Assembly: GCA_964546335.1 (NCBI GenBank) | Contig: CAZJJN010000006.1 | Coordinates: 12,120 to 76,119, forward strand | Source: an uncultured Phycisphaeraceae bacterium | GTDB taxonomy: Bacteria > Planctomycetota > Phycisphaerae > Phycisphaerales > Phycisphaeraceae | Direction of reading: 5' to 3' | Length of the DNA stretch: 64,000 nucleotides | Shown here: positions 2,256-59,374 of the stretch, piece by piece | Position numbering within the stretch: the first letter of the stretch is position 1 | How the letters are laid out: each line of letters opens with the position of its first letter | Notes under the pieces: model-generated | Databases searched by the model: none | What the model was told of the DNA's origin: nothing | The model's input: only the letters and a program-made list of their open reading frames with translations | Position numbers and translations under genes: made by a program

Positions 2256-3902
2256 ATGGCGGATGGCAAGAAATTTCGAATATTGGCAGCAGACAAACTG
2301 GCCCAGGAAGGCCTCGATTACATCGCTTCGCAACACGATTGCGAACTGGTCAACAAGCCAGGCCTGAGCGAAGACGAACTGGCTGCGATTGCAGGCGAGC
2401 ATCATGGCATGATCGTCCGCTCAGGTGTGCAGGTGACCGCCAAGGTGCTGGAGAAGCCCGGCGACTTGAAAGTCATCGCCCGAGCGGGGGTGGGTGTGGA
2501 TAACATCGACCTCAAGGCCGCGACTGACAAGGGTATCCTCGTCATGAACTCCGCCGAGGCCAGCACCATCAGTACCGCTGAGTTGGCGTTTACGTTGATG
2601 ATGGCCCTTTGCCGTAACATCGGCCCGGCTTACAAAACCATGTGCGATGGCGGTTGGGATCGTTCCAAGTTCACTGGCGCGCAATTGGCGGGTAAGACGC
2701 TGGGGGTGGTCGGCTTCGGACGCATCGGGCAAACTTTTGCTGAACGCGCGCTGGCCTTTGGCATGAGCGTGGTCGCGTACGACCCGTTCATCAATGCCAA
2801 GACCATGTTTGACGGCAAGGTGCGCATGTTCACCGATTTCGACGAGATGGTCCCCGAGGTCGATATCTTCACCTTCCATGTCCCCCTCAATGACCAGACC
2901 AAGGGCATGATGGGCAAGGCCCAGTTTGAGAAAGCACGCGACAACGTGCGCATCGTCAACGCGGCTCGTGGCGGGGTGGTGGATGAAGCAGCCGTGCTTG
3001 AAGCCGTCGAGTCGGGCAAGTGCGCGGGGGCGGCTCTGGATGTTTATACGGATGAACCCCCGGCTGAGGATTCACCATTACGCAATCACCCGAAGATTTT
3101 GACCTCGCCACACCTGGGCGCGAGCACCAAGGAAGCGCAGAAGGCAGTCAGCGTTACCGCAGCGGAGCAGTTGCTCGCTTACCTGCGTGGCGAAGGCATC
3201 AGCGGCGCGGTCAATGTGCGCGGCCTGCGGGTCGATCTTGACCCGGCCCAGGCAGCGTTTGTGGACCTGGCGGCGCGCATGGCTCGCGTGGTCAGCCCGA
3301 TGGTGACGCGAGGCATCGCCAGCGTGACTTTTGAATTGCGAGGCAAGGGTCTCGCTGCTGCCAGCGGGACGATCGAACGCACCGCGATGGTCGAGCTGCT
3401 GGCCAAGCATATTGATGATCCGGTCAACATCATCAACGTCATGGAAGTGGCTGAGAAGCGTGGTATCAAGTTGCGCTGTACCAGCGAGGACGATGCCAGC
3501 GACCGCGGCCCGCAATTGGCGATCACCATTGAAGGGCCAAGTGGCGCGGTGGATTCCGACACGCACCCGAAGGATGAAGTTCGCCGAGTGGTGGGTCGCG
3601 TGTTCGATGACCTTCAGCCGCGACTGGTGGAGATCAACGGCTACCACATGGACATGGTGCCTGCCGGTGCGATGGTACTGATTCAGAACGAGGACAGGCC
3701 GGGCATGATCGGCATGGTCGGTTCGGAGTTTGGCGAATCATCGGTGAACATCGCGGACATGACCATCAGCCGACGTGACACGACTGCGTTGATGCTGCTC
3801 AAGGTTGATGGCATTCCCTGCCAGGAGATGATCAATCGGTTGAGCGCCAGGCCTGGCATTTTGAAGGTGGCGACCGTGGAGTTGGCTCAGTTGCCGAAGT
3901 AG
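2256..3902 (+). CDS. serA: D-3-phosphoglycerate dehydrogenase (long form with C-terminal regulatory domains)
   Basis: NAD-binding 'GKTLGVVGFGRIGQ', then 'NAARGGVVDE' and 'SPHLGAST', with a ~200-aa C-terminal ASB/ACT-length extension. The ORF-track TTG at 2118 adds 46 implausible residues. The ATG at 2256 gives 'MADGKKFRILAADKL'. Confidence 0.9.
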   Translation: MADGKKFRILAADKLAQEGLDYIASQHDCELVNKPGLSEDELAAIAGEHHGMIVRSGVQVTAKVLEKPGDLKVIARAGVGVDNIDLKAATDKGILVMNSAEASTISTAELAFTLMMALCRNIGPAYKTMCDGGWDRSKFTGAQLAGKTLGVVGFGRIGQTFAERALAFGMSVVAYDPFINAKTMFDGKVRMFTDFDEMVPEVDIFTFHVPLNDQTKGMMGKAQFEKARDNVRIVNAARGGVVDEAAVLEAVESGKCAGAALDVYTDEPPAEDSPLRNHPKILTSPHLGASTKEAQKAVSVTAAEQLLAYLRGEGISGAVNVRGLRVDLDPAQAAFVDLAARMARVVSPMVTRGIASVTFELRGKGLAAASGTIERTAMVELLAKHIDDPVNIINVMEVAEKRGIKLRCTSEDDASDRGPQLAITIEGPSGAVDSDTHPKDEVRRVVGRVFDDLQPRLVEINGYHMDMVPAGAMVLIQNEDRPGMIGMVGSEFGESSVNIADMTISRRDTTALMLLKVDGIPCQEMINRLSARPGILKVATVELAQLPK

Positions 3903-6015: not shown

Positions 6016-8451
6016 TTATCGCCGGCGTTTGCCTTTGCCCTGACCTTTATTTTTCGGGCCTTGGCTGCGCTGGCTGCGTTTTTTGTTCCGCTTGATGTTT
6101 TGGGTTTGCCGGTGTGCTTCCCGAGCGCCCTTGGATTGTTTCCGCCGCTTTACATTGGCTGTGGATGACTTGCTCTTACTGGGGCTGGACAGTGAATCCA
6201 CAGCCACCAGATCCATCCGCCGCGCCCAGGGCTCGATGGTGGCGATGCGGACTTTGAGTCGTTCACCAATCTGAATGGATCGGCCGGACCTTTGCGCGAC
6301 CAGCGCGCCGGTCTGTTGATTTAACCGCCATTGCTCATTGCGCTCACTGCCTGCGATGTAGATCTCGCTGTGATGGACGAAGCCATCGACGAGGTAGCGA
6401 TCGAGTTGTACGAATAAGCCATCGCGCGTGATGCCTGTGACCGTGCCTTCAAAGTCATCGCCGACGAAATCGACGAGGAACTGGAGTACGAGGTATTGCC
6501 TTAAGCTGCGCTCGGCCGCCTCCGCGGTGCGCTCCGTTGCAGAGCAGTGATGTCCCGCCTGCACCAAGGCCTCGGCATCGGGCAGTCGGCTGTCTTTCTG
6601 CAAATTTTTGCGGATGTCGCGTTTCTTCTTGCTCGACTGTCGGGCTTCAAGATAAGCCTCGATGGCACGGTGGACGATCAGGTCCGGGTACCGGCGGATC
6701 GGGCTGGTGAAGTGCGTGTAGTGTTCGCTGGCCAGGGCGAAGTGGCCGATGGTCAGCGGGGCATATTCGGCCTTGGACAGTGTCTGAAGCACAGCCAGGT
6801 GGACGGCAAACTGCTGAGGTTTGCCACGCACTTTCTCCAGCAGTTGCTGCAGCTCGTGCCGCGTCGGCGAAGCAGGAATGTTGAAGCCAGCCACGCGAAC
6901 GAATTGCCGCAGCGCACTGTAATCATCCGAAGGCGGGTCGGGGTGGATACGGCGGATCATGGGAATGTTCATGCCGTCAAACAACCGGGCCGCAGCCTCG
7001 TTGGCTTCGACCATGAACATTTCAATGATGGTGTGCGTGAAAGCATCATCTTCCGGGTGAGCATCGATGACGTTGCCTGCTTCGTCGAAGACCAGTTCAG
7101 CATCGGGCAGGCCCAGCACGATCATGCCTTGCTTCATGCGCCTTTCACGAATCTTGATGGCCAACTCGTTCATGAGTTGCAAGGCATCGGTCAGCTCACG
7201 TGGATAGCGAGGCTCCGTCTTGCAGTGTTTGCGTGCTTCGCGCAGGTCGCGCTCGATCAGCGCCTGGGCTTCGAGATAAGTCAGACGACGGTTGGAACGA
7301 ATGACTGCCTGCTCAAAACGGGCGTCAATGACGTGGGCATCATCATCAAAGCGGATAAAGACCGACTTGGTGAAGCGGTTGACGCCTTCCTGAAGCGAGC
7401 AGACGCCGTTGGATAACACCTCGGGCAGCATGGGAATGACCAGCCGAGGCAGGTAACAACTGTTGCCACGCTCGTAGGCTTCGGCATCAAGTGCGCTGCC
7501 AGGCCTGACGAAGTGGGAAACGTCGGCGATGTGCACGCCAAGTTCGTAGGCCGCGCCACCTTCGGATCTGGGGTCTAATTTCGTGATGCTGATGGCATCG
7601 TCGAAGTCACGGGCGTCCGGCGGGTCGATGGTGGTAATGAACAGGTCGGTCAGATCGACGCGGTCGTCGGGTATCGCTTCTTCATCGAGATTAGCCGAGG
7701 CTTCGCGGGCTTCCTTGAGCACAGCTTCAGTGAATGGGCCGGGCAGGCCGAACGCTTTGATCACGGCTTGCGTTTCAACATCAGGTCTGCCGCTTTCGCC
7801 GAGTTTCTCGACGATGACACCTTGGGGCGGTTTGTGGTCGCTGCCGAAGTTGATGATCTCGACGACGACTTTGTCGCCATGATTGGCATCTTTCGCCCCC
7901 ACATCGCGCACGAAGATTTGCGATGGACTTTGCTTGCCATCAACCCGCACATACCATCGGTTGCCATCTTTCACGAGGTTGCCGACATACTGGTGTTCGC
8001 CGCGCTGGATGATCTCAATGATGCGACCGATGTAAGGCGAGCGATCGCTGGAGGCACGCGATGGGCGATGCTGCACTTTGGCGCGGACGCGGTCGCCGGT
8101 CATAGCCTGGCCGATGCCGTCGGGTGGGATGAACAGATCGCCATGCATGACCGGGGAATCGGGCACGAGGAAGCCGAAGCCGTTGGGATGTTTGCGCAGG
8201 ATGCCAGTCATCTCCCTGCCGGGTGGTGGCAGAGCGACCGCCTGCGAGCTGGTGAACACGATGCTGCCATCGTGGGCCAGTTCTCGTACCACTTTGGCAA
8301 AGGTGTCGTATTGATTTTCACTGATGCCGATGTCCGCTGCCAGTGCAGAGATACCTTTGGGTTGATAATGTTGCGAGCCGATCAACCTGAGAAGCTGGTC
8401 TTTGAAAGGCTTGGATTGGCCGTTGGTCGATTTGTTTTGATCTTCAGTCAC
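6016..8451 (-). CDS. rnr: ribonuclease R
   Basis: 811 aa. Cold-shock/OB N-terminal region, RNB catalytic core ('IDPPDARDFDDAISI', 'HFTSPIRRYPDLIVHR'), S1 domain ('FEGTVTGITRDGLFVQL') and a Lys/Arg-rich C-terminal tail. GTG start. Confidence 0.9.
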   Translation of the reverse strand: MTEDQNKSTNGQSKPFKDQLLRLIGSQHYQPKGISALAADIGISENQYDTFAKVVRELAHDGSIVFTSSQAVALPPPGREMTGILRKHPNGFGFLVPDSPVMHGDLFIPPDGIGQAMTGDRVRAKVQHRPSRASSDRSPYIGRIIEIIQRGEHQYVGNLVKDGNRWYVRVDGKQSPSQIFVRDVGAKDANHGDKVVVEIINFGSDHKPPQGVIVEKLGESGRPDVETQAVIKAFGLPGPFTEAVLKEAREASANLDEEAIPDDRVDLTDLFITTIDPPDARDFDDAISITKLDPRSEGGAAYELGVHIADVSHFVRPGSALDAEAYERGNSCYLPRLVIPMLPEVLSNGVCSLQEGVNRFTKSVFIRFDDDAHVIDARFEQAVIRSNRRLTYLEAQALIERDLREARKHCKTEPRYPRELTDALQLMNELAIKIRERRMKQGMIVLGLPDAELVFDEAGNVIDAHPEDDAFTHTIIEMFMVEANEAAARLFDGMNIPMIRRIHPDPPSDDYSALRQFVRVAGFNIPASPTRHELQQLLEKVRGKPQQFAVHLAVLQTLSKAEYAPLTIGHFALASEHYTHFTSPIRRYPDLIVHRAIEAYLEARQSSKKKRDIRKNLQKDSRLPDAEALVQAGHHCSATERTAEAAERSLRQYLVLQFLVDFVGDDFEGTVTGITRDGLFVQLDRYLVDGFVHHSEIYIAGSERNEQWRLNQQTGALVAQRSGRSIQIGERLKVRIATIEPWARRMDLVAVDSLSSPSKSKSSTANVKRRKQSKGAREAHRQTQNIKRNKKRSQRSQGPKNKGQGKGKRRR

Positions 8452-53409: not shown

Positions 53410-53653
53410 GGTAGGTCCCTTCTGCTAGGTCAGGGGGTGTTGGCTATTGTCGGGCGCGCGGTCTTTCCTCGGCCCGGTACTGTTGCAAACAGGCAAGGAT
53501 AATGGTTTGGGAGCGTATGGGGTAGTTGGTGGTACACATGATTCATTGCCAGTTGGCTAGACAGCCAAGAATCCTCAAAAAGTACGTAGAGACTGATTCT
53601 CAAACGATTCGATTGTCGATGTGGATGATAGAATGGGGGAAAGGAGCTTTACC

Positions 53654-54025
53654 ATGACAACTTTGACTACCTTGCCGAACAAAGCAACTGCGACTCTGTC
53701 ATCGCTCCCCAGACTTCCGGAGGATCAACGCATGTATGCCATTGCCTTTGATATGGATATTGAATCACTTCGTAATAACTATGGCGACCCGTATAACAAT
53801 GCTTACATGGAAATTCGAAGAATTTTGAAGAGCCATGGCTTTGATTGGCAACAAGGAAGTACCTACTTTGGGGGTGAGAAGATTAATGCGGTGACTTGTG
53901 TCCTTGCTGCTATTGATCTGGCAAAACAACTGCCCTGGTTCTCTGCCTCCGTACGCGACATCCGTATGCTTCGAATAGAGGAACTCAACGATTTGATGCC
54001 TGCGGTGCAGGATGCGAGTAAATAA
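53654..54025 (+). CDS. vapD: VapD-family (Cas2-like) endoribonuclease, solitary
   Basis: 'MYAIAFDMDIESL...QGSTYFG...LPWFSASVRDIRMLRIEELNDL' matches the VapD pattern (MYAIAFD...QGS.Y...VRDIR.FRIE). A strong RBS AAGGAG (53641-53646) precedes the ATG at 53654, giving a 26-aa N-terminal extension. The core Met is at 53732. Confidence 0.8.
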   Translation: MTTLTTLPNKATATLSSLPRLPEDQRMYAIAFDMDIESLRNNYGDPYNNAYMEIRRILKSHGFDWQQGSTYFGGEKINAVTCVLAAIDLAKQLPWFSASVRDIRMLRIEELNDLMPAVQDASK

Positions 54026-55624: not shown

Positions 55625-55704
55625 CTTTCAGTGCGGGCAGGTTTCCGATACGCTCTGTATTATCAAGTGTGACTTGGATGGGAGCAAACCCGCCGCGAAG
55701 AATC

Positions 55705-56712
55705 ATGGCTGAATACCGCGTAGAACTCGACAGTTATGCAGGCCCGTTGGACCTGTTGTTATTCCTCGTCAAACGCCACGAGATTGATCTGTATGACATC
55801 CCCATTGCGGAGCTGACCAATCAGTATCTGGCCTATGTGGAAAGGATGCAGCAGATTGATGTCGAACGGGCCGGCGAATTCCTGGTGATGGCCGCCACGC
55901 TCCTGGAAATCAAGAGCCGCATGCTCGTGCCGCGTCACGAGGAAAAGTTTGGCAGCGAAGAAGGGGAGGGGGATGATGCAGAACGCCCCGACAGTGCGGA
56001 AGATGCGATAGCGTCGTTCGACCCCCGGCATGAACTTGTCCAGCAGTTGCTGGCTTACAAGAGATTCAAAGATGCAGCGAGGATGCTGGAGCAGAGACGT
56101 GAAGTCTGGGAGAAGCGACTGCCTCTGGTGCCTGCCCGGGTGAAACGCAGGGCTGCGGATGAGGGGGACGATGCGGAGCCGATTGAGATTGATCTGGAAG
56201 ACATCGGCCTGAACGATCTGGTCAAGGCCTACACGTCCATTCTGGAGTCCATCGGTCAGCGGAATATTCAGCATGAAATATTGGATGATGACACGCCGAT
56301 CGCTTTGCACCAGGCAGACCTGACTGATCGCTTGACCACGGAAGGGCCTTTGACACTGACAACGGTGTTTGAGGGACGAAAGAAAATTGAGCGGATTGGT
56401 TTGTTCATTGCCACGCTGGAGTTGGTCAGGCAAAGGCAGGTCGCGGTGTATCAGGATGAGCAGGGGGATATCTGTCTGGAGCTGATGCCTGAGGATGAAC
56501 GGGAAGGGTCGGATATGGAGGGCGCGACGGATTGGCGCGATCCTGAAACGGGCGAGATGCAATACGACTGGCCGAATGAGAAGGCGCGGTTGCAAGCCGA
56601 ACGCCGGGCTGAGCGCCGGGCCAAGCGTGCTGCCAACTTTGGCAAGGGGGACGAAGAAGCAGAGGACAATGAGGATGATGAAGAGATTGATGTAGGGGAT
56701 GAGCAAGCGTGA
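55705..56712 (+). CDS. scpA: segregation and condensation protein A with long charged C-terminal tail
   Basis: 'YRVELDSYAGPLDLLLFLVKRHEIDLYDIPIAELTNQYL' and 'EFLVMAATLLEIKSRMLVP' are ScpA kleisin blocks. The ATG at 55705 is preferred. Confidence 0.85.
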   Translation: MAEYRVELDSYAGPLDLLLFLVKRHEIDLYDIPIAELTNQYLAYVERMQQIDVERAGEFLVMAATLLEIKSRMLVPRHEEKFGSEEGEGDDAERPDSAEDAIASFDPRHELVQQLLAYKRFKDAARMLEQRREVWEKRLPLVPARVKRRAADEGDDAEPIEIDLEDIGLNDLVKAYTSILESIGQRNIQHEILDDDTPIALHQADLTDRLTTEGPLTLTTVFEGRKKIERIGLFIATLELVRQRQVAVYQDEQGDICLELMPEDEREGSDMEGATDWRDPETGEMQYDWPNEKARLQAERRAERRAKRAANFGKGDEEAEDNEDDEEIDVGDEQA

Positions 56713-56748
56713 CAGAATGTTGAGTTGTTTGTCTGAGCATGTTTGATG

Positions 56749-56779
56749 TCCCCACGAGCCGCGACCGTGAGGGAGCGGA
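56749..56779. repeat. left arm of perfect inverted repeat
   Basis: 56750-56778 CCCCACGAGCCGCGACCGTGAGGGAGCGG is the exact reverse complement of 57224-57252. One further complementary base on each side gives 31 nt. Confidence 0.9.
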
Positions 56780-56824
56780 TATAAAAGCGGTGAAAAGTTA
56801 ACCCAAGCATCGAAAAAGAATGAC

Positions 56825-57124
56825 TTGATTATGAATGATGTAAATCTGCAAGAGGAACATGATGAGATCAACATTGGTGTTGAAGTTAATCTGCTTCTTG
56901 AGGCATGGGCTGATCGTCGCAATTATGATGAACTCTGTGAACTATGGGGTGGATATCGCTGTCTGAACGGCCTTACCGATGGCTGCGAAATATTCTTGAA
57001 ATCACTTAAAAGGCTTCGAGGTAGAGCACGTATGCAGGATACACAGGTAATTCATGACGCTGAAGCTAACAAAATTAATCTTCTGATCGGCGTCGTTAGC
57101 AGGATGCTGAATAATCGTCAGTAA
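56825..57124 (+). CDS. hypothetical 99-aa protein inside the inverted-repeat cassette
   Basis: The only ORF of at least 60 aa confined to the AT-rich segment between the arms. No family recognised and no obvious RBS checked. Confidence 0.4.
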   Translation: MIMNDVNLQEEHDEINIGVEVNLLLEAWADRRNYDELCELWGGYRCLNGLTDGCEIFLKSLKRLRGRARMQDTQVIHDAEANKINLLIGVVSRMLNNRQ

Positions 57125-57222
57125 AAATCACCATTTTGAATTGATCGCTGTTTATGCCATTAGAAATTTGAGTTGGGGGTGATTGTATGTAGCATTTCAC
57201 ACTCCTTATGCAGTGCAGGTCT

Positions 57223-57253
57223 TCCGCTCCCTCACGGTCGCGGCTCGTGGGGA
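57223..57253. repeat. right arm of perfect inverted repeat
   Basis: 57224-57252 CCGCTCCCTCACGGTCGCGGCTCGTGGGG is the reverse complement of the left arm. Confidence 0.9.
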
Positions 57254-57316
57254 GTCAAGGCAACTTGATGCCAGCTAAACGCGCAAGCATTGAAAAGTCA
57301 CGTTCATACTTGAGTC

Positions 57317-59374
57317 TCAGCGTCCTTCCTCACGAAACAGCCATTCTTCTTCAAGCAATTCCAGTTCACTGGCCAGACCGTCGCGCTGGGTCATCATCTT
57401 TTCCATATCGATGGTACTGACTTCGCGATACGTATTCGGGTCAGCCAGTTTTTTGTCAAGTTTGCCAATCTCTTTTTCCAGTTCCGCGATGCGGCCTTCC
57501 AATTTGGCATCGCTGTATTTCGTGTGTGCCCCGCGACGCTCGCCTTTGGTAGCGGCGTCTTTGGCTTTAGCAACTGGTTGCGTCTCTTTCACAGTGGGTT
57601 GGCTTGCCTTCTCCTTGGCTGGCTTCGACTGAAGTTGTTGCTCCGTCTTGGCAACCGCGGTTGATTCAATGCTGACGTTCTGCTTTTCCAGCTTTTCACG
57701 TTCAGCCAGGTAATCGCTGTACTTGCCATACATGTGGCGGATGCTACCTTCGCCATCGAGAATGATCAGTTGATCGACCAGATCATCCAGCAGCATGCGG
57801 TCGTGGGTGATCAGGATGAGTGAGCCTGGCGCATCGCGTCGTCGATCATCAACCTGACAGAATTGCTTGAGCGCGCCTTCCAGGCGTTCGGCACTGGGAA
57901 TGTCCAGGTGATTGGTCGGCTCGTCGAGCACCAGTAAGTTGTGGCCTCCGGCGACGAGAGTGGCGATGCGTGCCCGGCTGCGTTCCCCGCCTGACAGCAT
58001 GCCCAATTGCTTTTCCTGATCGATCCCGCTGAAAAGAAAAGCACCAGCGAGGTCGCGTGCTTCCTGCTCACCGAGTTCGGTGCTGAACTTGATGTATTCG
58101 ATGACCGTCAACTCAAGGTTCATGTCCTCATGCGTCTGGCGGAAGTAGCCCACGTCAACACCAGTGCCCAGCCGAACCTGCCCTTTGTCGCTGGCCAGCG
58201 TCTCAAGCAGACAGGCAACCAAAGTAGATTTGCCTGCACCGTTAGGCCCGATGATGCCGACGCGGTCGCCGCGTTTCATCGAGAAATCGAAGTCGGTGAA
58301 CAACGGTTTCGTATCGTAATTCTTGGTCAGGCCCAGACAGGAGATGAGGTTTTCGCTGCATCGCTTGGCTTTGCGCAGTTGCAGGTTCATCACGCCATGT
58401 TCGCTGGGGCGGTCGATTCCTTCGTTGGATATCAGACGTTCCAGCTTGCGTTCGCGCCCGGCAGCCTGCTTGGCGCGTTGACCTGCGCGGTAGCGGTCGA
58501 TGAACGCTTTTTCCTGTCGGATTTTGACCTGCTGCTTTTCATACTCGCGTTGACGCACCAACTGCCGTTCAGCCCGTAGTTCCACGTATTTCTGGTAGTT
58601 GCCGGGGTAATCAATGAGGCGGCCTTCTTCCAACTCGTAAATACATGTCACGACGCGATCCAGAAGCCAACGGTCGTGACTGATGAGAATCACCGCACTG
58701 GGAGATTCACTGAGATACTCTTCCAGCCATTCTCGCCCGGCGATATCGAGGTGGTTGGTCGGTTCATCCAGCAGCAGGACATCCGGCTCGGACAGCAGTA
58801 GCTTGGCCAGTGAGAGTCTGCCTTTCTGGCCGCCGGACAGGTCGGCGACTTTGACATCAAACAGGTTGTCGGTGATGCCCACGCCATGCAGCACGGCTTC
58901 GACCCGGTGAGCGGTGGTCAGTCCGCCAGCCGCTTCGATCTGATGCTCGACCTGTTCGTATTCGCGCATCAGGCGATCAAGGGCATCGCCTTTAGCTTCG
59001 GCCATGTCATGGGCGAGTTTTTCGAGCTTGGTCTGCAATTCTTCGACGTGGGCGAAGGCGCGTTTGGCTTCTTCGAGAAGCGTCAGGTCGAGATTGAGCT
59101 TGGGATCTTGCGTGAGGTAGCCGACGGTCGCGTTGCGGGCGAGTTGGATTTGGCCTTTGTCGGCTTGCAGGCCGGGCAAACCAGCCATGAGCTTGAGAAG
59201 GGTTGATTTTCCCGTGCCATTGCGTCCGACCAGGCCGACGTGTTCGCCTGCTTCGAGGGTGATCGAGGCCCCGTCGAGGATACGGCGGGTGCCAAAGGAA
59301 AGTTCGATGTTAGCAGCAGCGAGGATGGCCATGGGGCCAAAGGGTAGCAAAGACTGGCCGGCAAGGTCGTTCAC
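57317..59374 (-). CDS. ABC-F family ATPase (two ABC domains, C-terminal coiled coil; Uup-like)
   Basis: Two Walker A sites ('GRNGTGKST', 'GPNGAGKST'), two signatures ('LSGGQKGRLSLA', 'LSGGERSRARIA'), no TM domain, and 'KLEGRIAELEKEIGKLDKKLADPNTY'. An alternative start is 59332. Confidence 0.9.
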   Translation of the reverse strand: MNDLAGQSLLPFGPMAILAAANIELSFGTRRILDGASITLEAGEHVGLVGRNGTGKSTLLKLMAGLPGLQADKGQIQLARNATVGYLTQDPKLNLDLTLLEEAKRAFAHVEELQTKLEKLAHDMAEAKGDALDRLMREYEQVEHQIEAAGGLTTAHRVEAVLHGVGITDNLFDVKVADLSGGQKGRLSLAKLLLSEPDVLLLDEPTNHLDIAGREWLEEYLSESPSAVILISHDRWLLDRVVTCIYELEEGRLIDYPGNYQKYVELRAERQLVRQREYEKQQVKIRQEKAFIDRYRAGQRAKQAAGRERKLERLISNEGIDRPSEHGVMNLQLRKAKRCSENLISCLGLTKNYDTKPLFTDFDFSMKRGDRVGIIGPNGAGKSTLVACLLETLASDKGQVRLGTGVDVGYFRQTHEDMNLELTVIEYIKFSTELGEQEARDLAGAFLFSGIDQEKQLGMLSGGERSRARIATLVAGGHNLLVLDEPTNHLDIPSAERLEGALKQFCQVDDRRRDAPGSLILITHDRMLLDDLVDQLIILDGEGSIRHMYGKYSDYLAEREKLEKQNVSIESTAVAKTEQQLQSKPAKEKASQPTVKETQPVAKAKDAATKGERRGAHTKYSDAKLEGRIAELEKEIGKLDKKLADPNTYREVSTIDMEKMMTQRDGLASELELLEEEWLFREEGR

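Follow-up and report, generated by a model that had tools for sequence, protein, structure and literature searches.

A probable REPIN-like doublet of Class 3 REP-like units whose spacer holds a foreign gene, located at a strain-variable site of a Phycisphaeraceae genome

In a 64,000-nucleotide stretch of the genome of an uncultured Phycisphaeraceae bacterium (GenBank assembly GCA_964546335.1, contig CAZJJN010000006.1, positions 12,120 to 76,119; here called the window, with positions counted from its first letter), two perfectly complementary 31-nt arms bracket a small low-GC gene between scpA and a gene for an ABC-F ATPase. We read this arrangement as a doublet of a known family of repetitive extragenic palindromes (REPs), similar to the REP doublets called REPINs, with a foreign gene in its spacer and located in a strain-variable hotspot, and we put the probability of this reading at about 0.6. 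REPINs, as reportedly described by Bertels and Rainey in 2011 (cited in PMC3733652), are REP doublets that form hairpins. They are non-autonomous and presumably depend on a single-copy HuH-Y1 protein for their mobilisation, and the systems that they form with REP-associated tyrosine transposases (RAYTs) are mostly lineage-specific and vertically inherited. The locus was first pointed out in an earlier reading by a model that saw only the letters and their open reading frames (ORFs), which we call the original prediction.

Results

A perfect inverted repeat around low-GC DNA

A repeat search returned a perfect inverted repeat, window 56749-56779 against 57223-57253, in which 31 of 31 nt are complementary and the arms are 443 nt apart. 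The left arm reads TCCCCACGAGCCGCGACCGTGAGGGAGCGGA, and its exact reverse complement forms the right arm. From the base composition, about 6e-10 perfect inverted pairs of 31 nt would be expected by chance in the window. Neither a 29-mer of the arm nor the 23-nt core of the repeat unit described below has another occurrence in the 64 kb with up to 3 mismatches allowed, and matches were found in 0 of 100 shuffles. GC content is 0.406 between the arms vs. 0.55 in the window as a whole. No target-site duplication is present at the arms: the hexamer TTGATG adjoins the left arm and occurs again 11 nt past the right arm. A search for direct repeats of target-site type at the borders of the arms or the spacer also found none. 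Much of the original prediction is borne out here. It had described a perfect inverted repeat of 29-31 bp with an AT-rich interior, placed between convergent scpA and ABC-F genes (now supported by matches to PF02616 and to ABC-F domains), and it had noted both the missing target-site duplication and the two positions of TTGATG. A promoter and terminator scan of 56300-57700 gave zero sites, and Rfam gave nothing relevant at gathering thresholds across the window or at E <= 10 across 56650-57350.

The same strain, which is present in SRR7048223, was also met in a short-read Logan assembly (L065). This is 100% identical to the window, and its contig ends inside the left arm (L065 1-28 corresponds to window 56749-56776). 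Since a perfect inverted repeat breaks assembly, loci of this kind should be under-represented in metagenome contigs.

The arms match a published REP-like unit

By sequence and predicted fold, each arm appears to be one copy of a published REP-like hairpin unit linked to Class 3 HuH-Y1 (TnpA_Y1) genes. Quentin, Siguier, Chandler and Fichant (2018, BMC Genomics 19:475; PMC6006769) described 26-nt units of "atypical secondary structure" beside Class 3 HuH-Y1 genes and listed them for Legionella, Solibacter and Planctopirus, with a high copy number in Solibacter. Table S1 of that paper gives CCGAGCCGCGACCGTAAGGGAGCGGA for Legionella pneumophila, CAGAGCCGCGACCGTTAGGGAGCG... for Solibacter and, for Planctopirus limnophila, a diverged unit with the foot (C)ACGAG. 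The unit in the window, ACGAGCCGCGACCGTGAGGGAGCGGA, equals the Legionella unit at 24 of 26 positions, the differences being the first base of the foot and the free (N) base of the loop. Folded alone with DNA parameters, each arm gives .....((((..((....))..)))), the same dot-bracket string as in Table S1, and forms a small stem-loop with an internal GA/GA bulge and a 4-nt GTNA loop, as Class 3 units do. This match was obtained through the supplement of PMC6006769; a full-text literature search with the raw sequence matched nothing but a primer, by coincidence. The original prediction had pointed to a likeness to GC-rich REP-like elements of Planctomycetota and Acidobacteriota, and both Table S1 and the core scans reported below agree with it. 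Integron attC sites, dif/Xer sites and Tn3-type inverted repeats were considered as other identities for the arms; their features misfit, and the Class 3 match explains the arms.

Of the 249 exact units collected, 203 have the tetranucleotide CnGA as their 5' foot, and ACGA is the main minority type (26/249). The window carries ACGA, not CnGA, and the AC foot is the commonest type within Phycisphaerae (13/35 units). The type of unit and the frequency of this foot in the class argue that the arms are of a type native to the host's class and were not brought in with the low-GC insert.

The arms agree beyond the unit

The similarity of the two arms does not end with the unit. They share 7 complementary nt beyond the core, 5 of which lie beyond the 26-nt unit, and they also agree in foot type, in the variable N base and in the trailing base. 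For a second unit inserted independently, the probability of such agreement is about 3e-5. The motif CCCCACGAGCCGCGACC is absent from all of the other 190 loci collected, and the outer extension is therefore not a general consensus of a subfamily. Units also seem scarce in this lineage: the 64-kb window has none besides the two arms, and 11 kb of a sister-strain contig (L066) has just the one resident unit, which makes two independent insertions 470 nt apart unlikely. Because the outer extension is both complementary and shared, we take the arms to be one REPIN-like doublet, not two independent REPs. One hypothesis of the original prediction, that two REP-type elements in inverted orientation frame an acquired gene, was essentially right; what has to be amended is that the arms, with their shared 7-nt extension, act as one doublet.

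The slot beside the unit differs between two strains

The sister strain (L066, L067), which is present in ERZ28505417 and ERR15087783, encodes ScpA and ABC-F proteins that are 97% and 95% identical to those of the window. It is collinear with the window at 95.4% up to position 56759 and at 92.8% from 57326 on (the blastn breakpoints). After scpA, at the same position, it carries TCCCCACGAGC, then a 51-nt insert, then GCGACCGTGAGGGAGCGGA; that is, its unit is split one base past the foot by an insert with two foot-like CTGAGC partial units (L066 3100-3180, L067 2989-3069). The left unit and its TCCCCAC flank are common to the host strain and the sister strain. Their presence in both marks them as resident and older than the split of the two strains. 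The right arm is absent from L066/L067 and lies wholly within the strain-specific segment of the window. Homology stops at the 3' edge of the unit and restarts three codons inside the ABC-F gene, the last three codons of which differ between the strains.

The DNA in the sister's slot is of another kind altogether. It is a 3.6-kb insert with a GC content of 0.48, vs. 0.575 for the rest, and its cargo is a type II restriction-modification pair, a GHKL-ATPase-type restriction endonuclease (REase) and a C5 DNA methylase (L066 3377-6507). The first is a 717-aa protein with HATPase_c_3, a weak match to SduA_C and a match to the PADLOC REase_II model, and its partner has 326 aa. From the unit's 3' edge to the end of the ABC-F gene, the DNA differs between the strains and was acquired horizontally. 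The slot is a strain-variable hotspot, and its left border coincides exactly with the Class 3 REP unit's 3' edge.

The protein collection holds no strains closer than this sister strain. The original prediction had placed the unit where scpB would usually follow scpA; a relative with an 83%-identical ScpA does have another gene directly after scpA, on a contig of only 1.4 kb; in a relative with a 61%-identical ABC-F protein, synteny is lost; and a scan of metagenomes for scpA relatives gave one distant and uninformative match. As a separate observation, the 51-nt split of the sister's unit could be a scar left after the DNA was repeatedly cut and rejoined at the foot.

The enclosed gene belongs to a conserved family

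The gene between the arms, which we call ORF99, has a GC content at third codon positions (GC3) of 0.37, vs. 0.65-0.70 in scpA, the ABC-F gene and kdsD. The original prediction regarded it as an orphan, a description that no longer holds: six homologs were found at 54-75% identity, with 39 invariant columns, and a profile search (alignment A1) gathered about 61 cluster representatives, nearly all of 80-120 aa. Pairwise ratios of nonsynonymous to synonymous substitution rates (dN/dS) among the homologs are 0.05-0.27. The original prediction also suggested a structure prediction, and the AlphaFold model obtained is a confident all-helical bundle (pLDDT 84.5); from this model, the product is predicted to be a small four-helix protein. 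Searches for a function gave no match in Pfam, NCBIfam, PADLOC, PHROGs or a PDB sequence profile, and no Foldseek match in the PDB at E <= 0.001. The protein lacks a HuH or Y motif and is no transposase.

Homologs of ORF99 are found beside asd (two contigs), after hisS (one) and beside an IclR-like gene (one), and no repeat unit is present near them in the five other loci. The original prediction had named the same ORF at this locus in relatives lacking the arms as one of two joint signs of a chance REP pair; relatives do carry the ORF without arms, only at other loci. Searches with ORF99 gave no match among plasmids or phages, and a search with a synthetic doublet gave none among plasmids. 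From these comparisons we conclude that ORF99 is a real gene that the host acquired recently, and that the arms are not part of the gene's own unit.

Some further features of the family were recorded. Its conserved residues include W26, R29, R30, L48, T49, D50 and E78, in the motifs AW.DRR.Y and NGLTDG, and no curated family covers it. In one locus (L064), a direct repeat of about 40 nt (ACGGGGTATGATGTTCrGGT..ATATC.GGGG), at 3277-3320 and 3772-3812, flanks the ORF99 homolog.

Distribution and organisation of the units

The 23-nt core, GAGCCGCGACCGTNAGGGAGCGG, has exact matches in 61 stretches of IMG/VR and at least 120 stretches of genomes, more than 180 contigs together; the genome scan covered one genome per species, and phyla were assigned by record title. 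Among the matches listed, about 54 are from Acidobacteriota (Bryobacterales, Solibacter, Terriglobia), 27 from Phycisphaerae and 29 from other Planctomycetota, and others are from Gammaproteobacteria (4, of which 2 are Legionella), Chloroflexota (4) and Binataceae (1). One example is found in Legionella shakespearei (L105 3524-3546), and further ones are L137 1424-1483, L110 and L122. In Acidobacteriota, Planctomycetota, Gammaproteobacteria, Chloroflexota and Binataceae alike, this non-coding unit of 23 nt is exact bar one free base. A REP-RAYT system normally keeps to one lineage, so that identity of the unit across phyla points to horizontal spread or to a very strict constraint on the site of an enzyme. 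The phylum spread is that of PMC6006769 with some further phyla, and that paper lists the Class 3 units without discussing their identity across phyla.

In the 120 genome loci listed, exact units stand alone in 75 cases, form tail-to-tail pairs in 19 and form plus/minus hairpin doublets in 41. Loops of the doublets are 9-59 nt long, apart from a single 225-nt loop in which variant repeats are nested, and their sequence is not conserved. The units sit in ordinary intergenic DNA, for example in the nuoE/nuoF gap in L138 or around grx/prx genes in L137. No neighbouring gene recurs in more than 5 of the 120 listed loci, and so no adjacent cognate enzyme was found. A complementary outer extension of at least 3 nt was seen in 16 of 50 short-loop doublets, and it extends to 7 nt (L170) and 14 nt (L174); the sequence of these extensions varies from copy to copy and complementarity is kept. 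When all plus/minus pairs no more than 6.5 kb apart were compared across about 190 loci, the pair in the window was the only one to combine a long spacer with a long outer extension. The other long-range pairs, those in L137, L138 and L155 among them, proved to be short doublets that are independent of each other and lie side by side around housekeeping genes. Gene-enclosing doublets are not a recurrent design in this sample. The other of the two joint signs of a chance pair in the original prediction was an arm known only from scattered single copies, with no paired cases. Scattered single copies do occur, but so do many short-loop pairs, and no other gene-enclosing pair was found, which gives this check a mixed outcome.

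The IMG/VR contigs show a different organisation. Their units are co-oriented and are often preceded by tandem 5'-partial units (foot plus half stem, with a period of 17-19 nt) or lie in 67/69-nt tandem arrays; examples are L006 1365-1659, L039 13157-13451, L030 ~6190-6257, L040 10060-10240 and L061 2740-2870. About half of these contigs have in common a structural module with a P22-coat-like protein, and in L061 and L019 the core is interrupted by an inserted hairpin. The 67/69-nt periodic arrays in L006 and L039 were considered as a CRISPR array and rejected, as their "spacers" are identical and they are tandem repeats.

Features of the locus

Coordinates of the features discussed are collected in Table 1. 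A second strain-variable slot was noticed across the kdsC-kdsD-scpA block, where homology to the sister strain ends at window 54025. This is the end of an ORF of 134 aa (53621-54025, plus strand) that has a weak match to the Cas2 family (PF09827, E 6e-4) and looks VapD-like by eye.

Table 1. Features at the scpA/ABC-F locus, in window positions.
Feature	Position	Strand	Description
scpA	55669..56712	+	PF02616, E 3.6e-28; Phycisphaerae ScpA homologs; stop codon 36 nt before left arm
Left arm	56749..56779	+	Outer extension TCCCC (5 nt) and one 26-nt Class 3 REP-like unit (by sequence match), 56754-56779
Parts of left-arm unit	56754-56779	+	ACGAG as foot; CCGC-GA-CC-GTGA-GG-GA-GCGG as stem-loop with bulge; trailing A
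Segment without collinear homology to sister strain	56760..57325		Exception: 19-nt 3' part of left unit
Spacer ("loop") of doublet	56780..57222		443 nt, GC 0.406, foreign composition, no internal repeats or target-site-like duplications
ORF99-family gene	56831..57124	+	97 aa from ATG 56831 (likelier start); 99 aa from TTG 56825
Right arm	57223..57253	-	Minus-strand Class 3 REP-like unit (by sequence match), 57223-57248, and 5-nt outer extension, 57249-57253
ABC-F ATPase gene	57317..59374	-	ABC_tran x2, ABC_tran_Xtn, ABC_tran_CTD; convergent with scpA; stop codon 63 nt past right arm

Discussion

The repeat unit at this locus belongs to an already described family, and the arrangement resembles REPINs, REPtrons and miniature inverted-repeat transposable elements (MITEs) and differs from each of them. 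With the Class 3 units of PMC6006769 it shares a 23-nt core that is identical bar the free N, the bulged stem-loop, a foot of the Planctopirus type, the taxonomic spread and the dispersed, intergenic placement. However, the published units flank a Y1 gene and are dispersed in high copy number, whereas here an inverted pair encloses a gene that is not a transposase, copies seem to be few in the host lineage (2 in 64 kb), and no Class 3 gene could be seen in the 64-kb window. As in a REPIN, two inverted REP units can form one long hairpin (31/31 nt, with a shared outer extension), and the short-loop doublets of the family look like REPINs. The spacers of REPINs, in contrast, are tens of nt long and geneless, so that the 443-nt spacer of the window, with its conserved gene, is ten times too long. 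In addition, the core of the unit is identical across phyla, and the cognate enzyme class, Class 3, falls outside RAYT groups 2 and 3. A REPtron is a tnpA_REP gene flanked by inverted REPs or bacterial interspersed mosaic elements (REP/BIME; Ton-Hoang et al. 2012; PMC8266576). The window has the same plan of a single gene bracketed by inverted REP units, but the gene encodes a 97-aa protein, predicted to be all-helical, that is no Y1 transposase and lacks any HuH or Y motif.

MITEs, foldback elements and the palindrome-associated elements derived from IS200/IS605 are likewise short non-autonomous segments bounded by terminal inverted repeats, and the absence of a target-site duplication at the locus fits HuH-Y1 elements. 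The hypothesis in the original prediction of a foldback or MITE-like element with a passenger gene is nevertheless not supported, on several counts: no second copy and no target-site duplication were found, one arm (the left) is resident in the sister strain, the ORF has homologs without arms, and a foreign gene stands where a transposase remnant would be. The pdif modules of Acinetobacter plasmids offer a functional analogy only. There, inverted sites of about 28 nt bracket small variable gene modules, but the sites in the window are not dif-like, and no sign of Xer involvement and no recurrence of the module were observed.

The history that we favour starts from an ordinary short-loop doublet between convergent scpA and ABC-F genes in the common ancestor of the two strains. 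In the host strain, foreign low-GC DNA of about 440 nt would have entered the loop, with the gene for a small conserved protein, predicted to be four-helix. In the sister strain, the restriction-modification cassette would have replaced the loop, the right unit and the downstream spacer. Under such a history of insertion into the loop, the arm pair would not be an autonomous element. By analogy with TnpA_REP and IS200/IS605, the units may be non-autonomous hairpin substrates in single-stranded DNA (ssDNA), cut and rejoined by a Class 3 Y1 enzyme encoded elsewhere. Such an enzyme would bind the folded unit in ssDNA and cut beside it, if it resembles its better-known counterparts (PMC6006769, PMC8266576), and cutting beside the unit would explain both the junctions at the unit's edge and the absent duplications. 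Nicking or hairpin extrusion at the unit would be a plausible reason for foreign DNA joining exactly at this edge. A transcript of scpA or of the ORF that ran through both arms would be predicted to form a 31-bp stem around the ORF, likely a target of RNase III, as a by-product.

Several points weigh against this reading of the locus. Its strongest lead is where the hotspot border lies, at the unit's edge, and its weakest point is a basis of two strains and one gene-enclosing doublet. The original prediction had proposed looking for an empty site downstream of scpA in relatives; an intact short-loop doublet was not found in any of them, and the ancestral state is drawn from two strains only. 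An ancestor with a single unit would explain the sister strain equally well. The sequence GTGGGG, 12 nt after the sister's unit, is a weak hint of a relic of the right arm's outer stem, with p = 0.2 for homology of the flank and a z of -0.9 for the fold. No duplication or recombination scar was found that would account for the entry of some 440 nt into a hairpin loop. A search for the motif of Class 3 Y1 genes (NHVH ... W[TA] ... YV[VI]xEQ) returned only false positives in the 64-kb window and in 192 loci. We know of no Class 3 HuH-Y1 enzyme that has been studied, and of no biochemistry on these proteins.

The explanation closest to a loop insertion is an inverted duplication in situ. A single ancestral unit would have been copied, together with 5 flanking nt, to the far end of the insert in inverted orientation by fold-back repair or template switching, triggered by foreign DNA joining at the unit's 3' edge, for instance after a Y1 nick or at a fork stalled on the hairpin. 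A unit and TCCCCAC flank shared with the sister, next to a right arm that lies inside the strain-specific segment, are what this explanation predicts, and the outer 5 nt of the right arm complement the resident flank as expected if they were templated from the left. Perfect arms (31/31) would fit a recent event, and the cargo of both strains starts exactly at the unit's 3' edge. Yet the explanation takes as many events as loop insertion and is equally parsimonious, no direct evidence of template switching was found, and outer extensions are common enough in short-loop doublets that a pre-existing doublet suffices without a special event. We therefore regard inverted duplication as unlikely, if still worth keeping in mind. 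Independent insertion of the two units, and arrival of the whole 505 bp as a mobile cassette, are both less likely than either of these variants. Insertion of two solo units, inverted by coincidence around a gene already acquired horizontally, draws some credit from the 75 exact solo copies among the genome loci listed (the commonest form of the family), from units that adjoin unrelated genes, with neighbouring independent units able to flank ordinary genes (L137, L138, L155), and from ORF99 homologs that have no arms. It has to account for the 5 complementary nt beyond the unit together with the same foot type, N base and trailing base, an agreement with a probability of about 3e-5, and for a motif, CCCCACGAGCCGCGACC, found in none of the other 190 loci, and we hold it to be quite improbable.

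Arrival of the arm-gene-arm segment as a whole, as a giant element of REPIN or REPtron type mobilised in trans as ssDNA by a Class 3 HuH-Y1 enzyme, is just as doubtful. The architecture does mirror a REPtron, with a gene between inverted REPs (PMC6006769, PMC8266576), low-GC DNA exactly fills the space between two perfect arms, and from what is known of IS200/IS605, HuH-Y1 transposition is expected to leave no target-site duplication. But the sister strain has the left arm and its flank without the gene or the right arm, so that at least one arm was there before; no second copy of the unit or the spacer was found; ORF99 homologs occur at five other loci without arms; the doublet is the only one among about 190 loci to enclose a gene; and ORF99 is absent from the phage and plasmid collections. 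The least probable explanation, to which we give very little weight, is a selected RNA device, in which a 31-bp stem in a read-through transcript from scpA into the ORF would direct processing by RNase III or insulate or stabilise the ORF mRNA. The original prediction had included a long-range RNA stem among its hypotheses, and its physical plausibility stands: the duplex is predicted at -75 kcal/mol, the arms close the fold predicted for 56735-57270 (z = -5.7), and the ORF is co-oriented with scpA with no promoter-like or terminator-like site between them. A family of DNA-level repeats, however, explains the arms without any RNA function, Rfam gave no match, homologs of the ORF function without arms, and the stem is known from a single instance.

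A bolder extension of the loop-insertion history would treat Class 3 REP units as gene-capture sites. A HuH-Y1 enzyme or hairpin extrusion would join foreign ssDNA at the unit's 3' edge, the doublet would become a passenger cassette that can be mobilised in trans, and the unit downstream of scpA would serve as a site-specific integration hotspot, where one strain took in a small-gene cassette and the other a restriction-modification system. We offer this as speculation with a low chance of being right.

A single description, based on sequence analysis, covers the Class 3 HuH-Y1 proteins and their REP-like units, for which no activity or role is known. Near-identity of a non-coding 23-nt unit across at least four phyla calls for an explanation, given that REP-RAYT systems are usually lineage-specific. 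With cargo that starts at the 3' edge of a resident unit in two strains that are 95% identical, the idea that such units are entry points for foreign DNA becomes directly testable. A whole gene in the loop of a doublet suggests that the hairpin architecture tolerates, or perhaps promotes, cargo. Even if the events at this locus were only accidents, it would still be a clean example of REP doublets marking strain-variable hotspots, with arms that break short-read assemblies.

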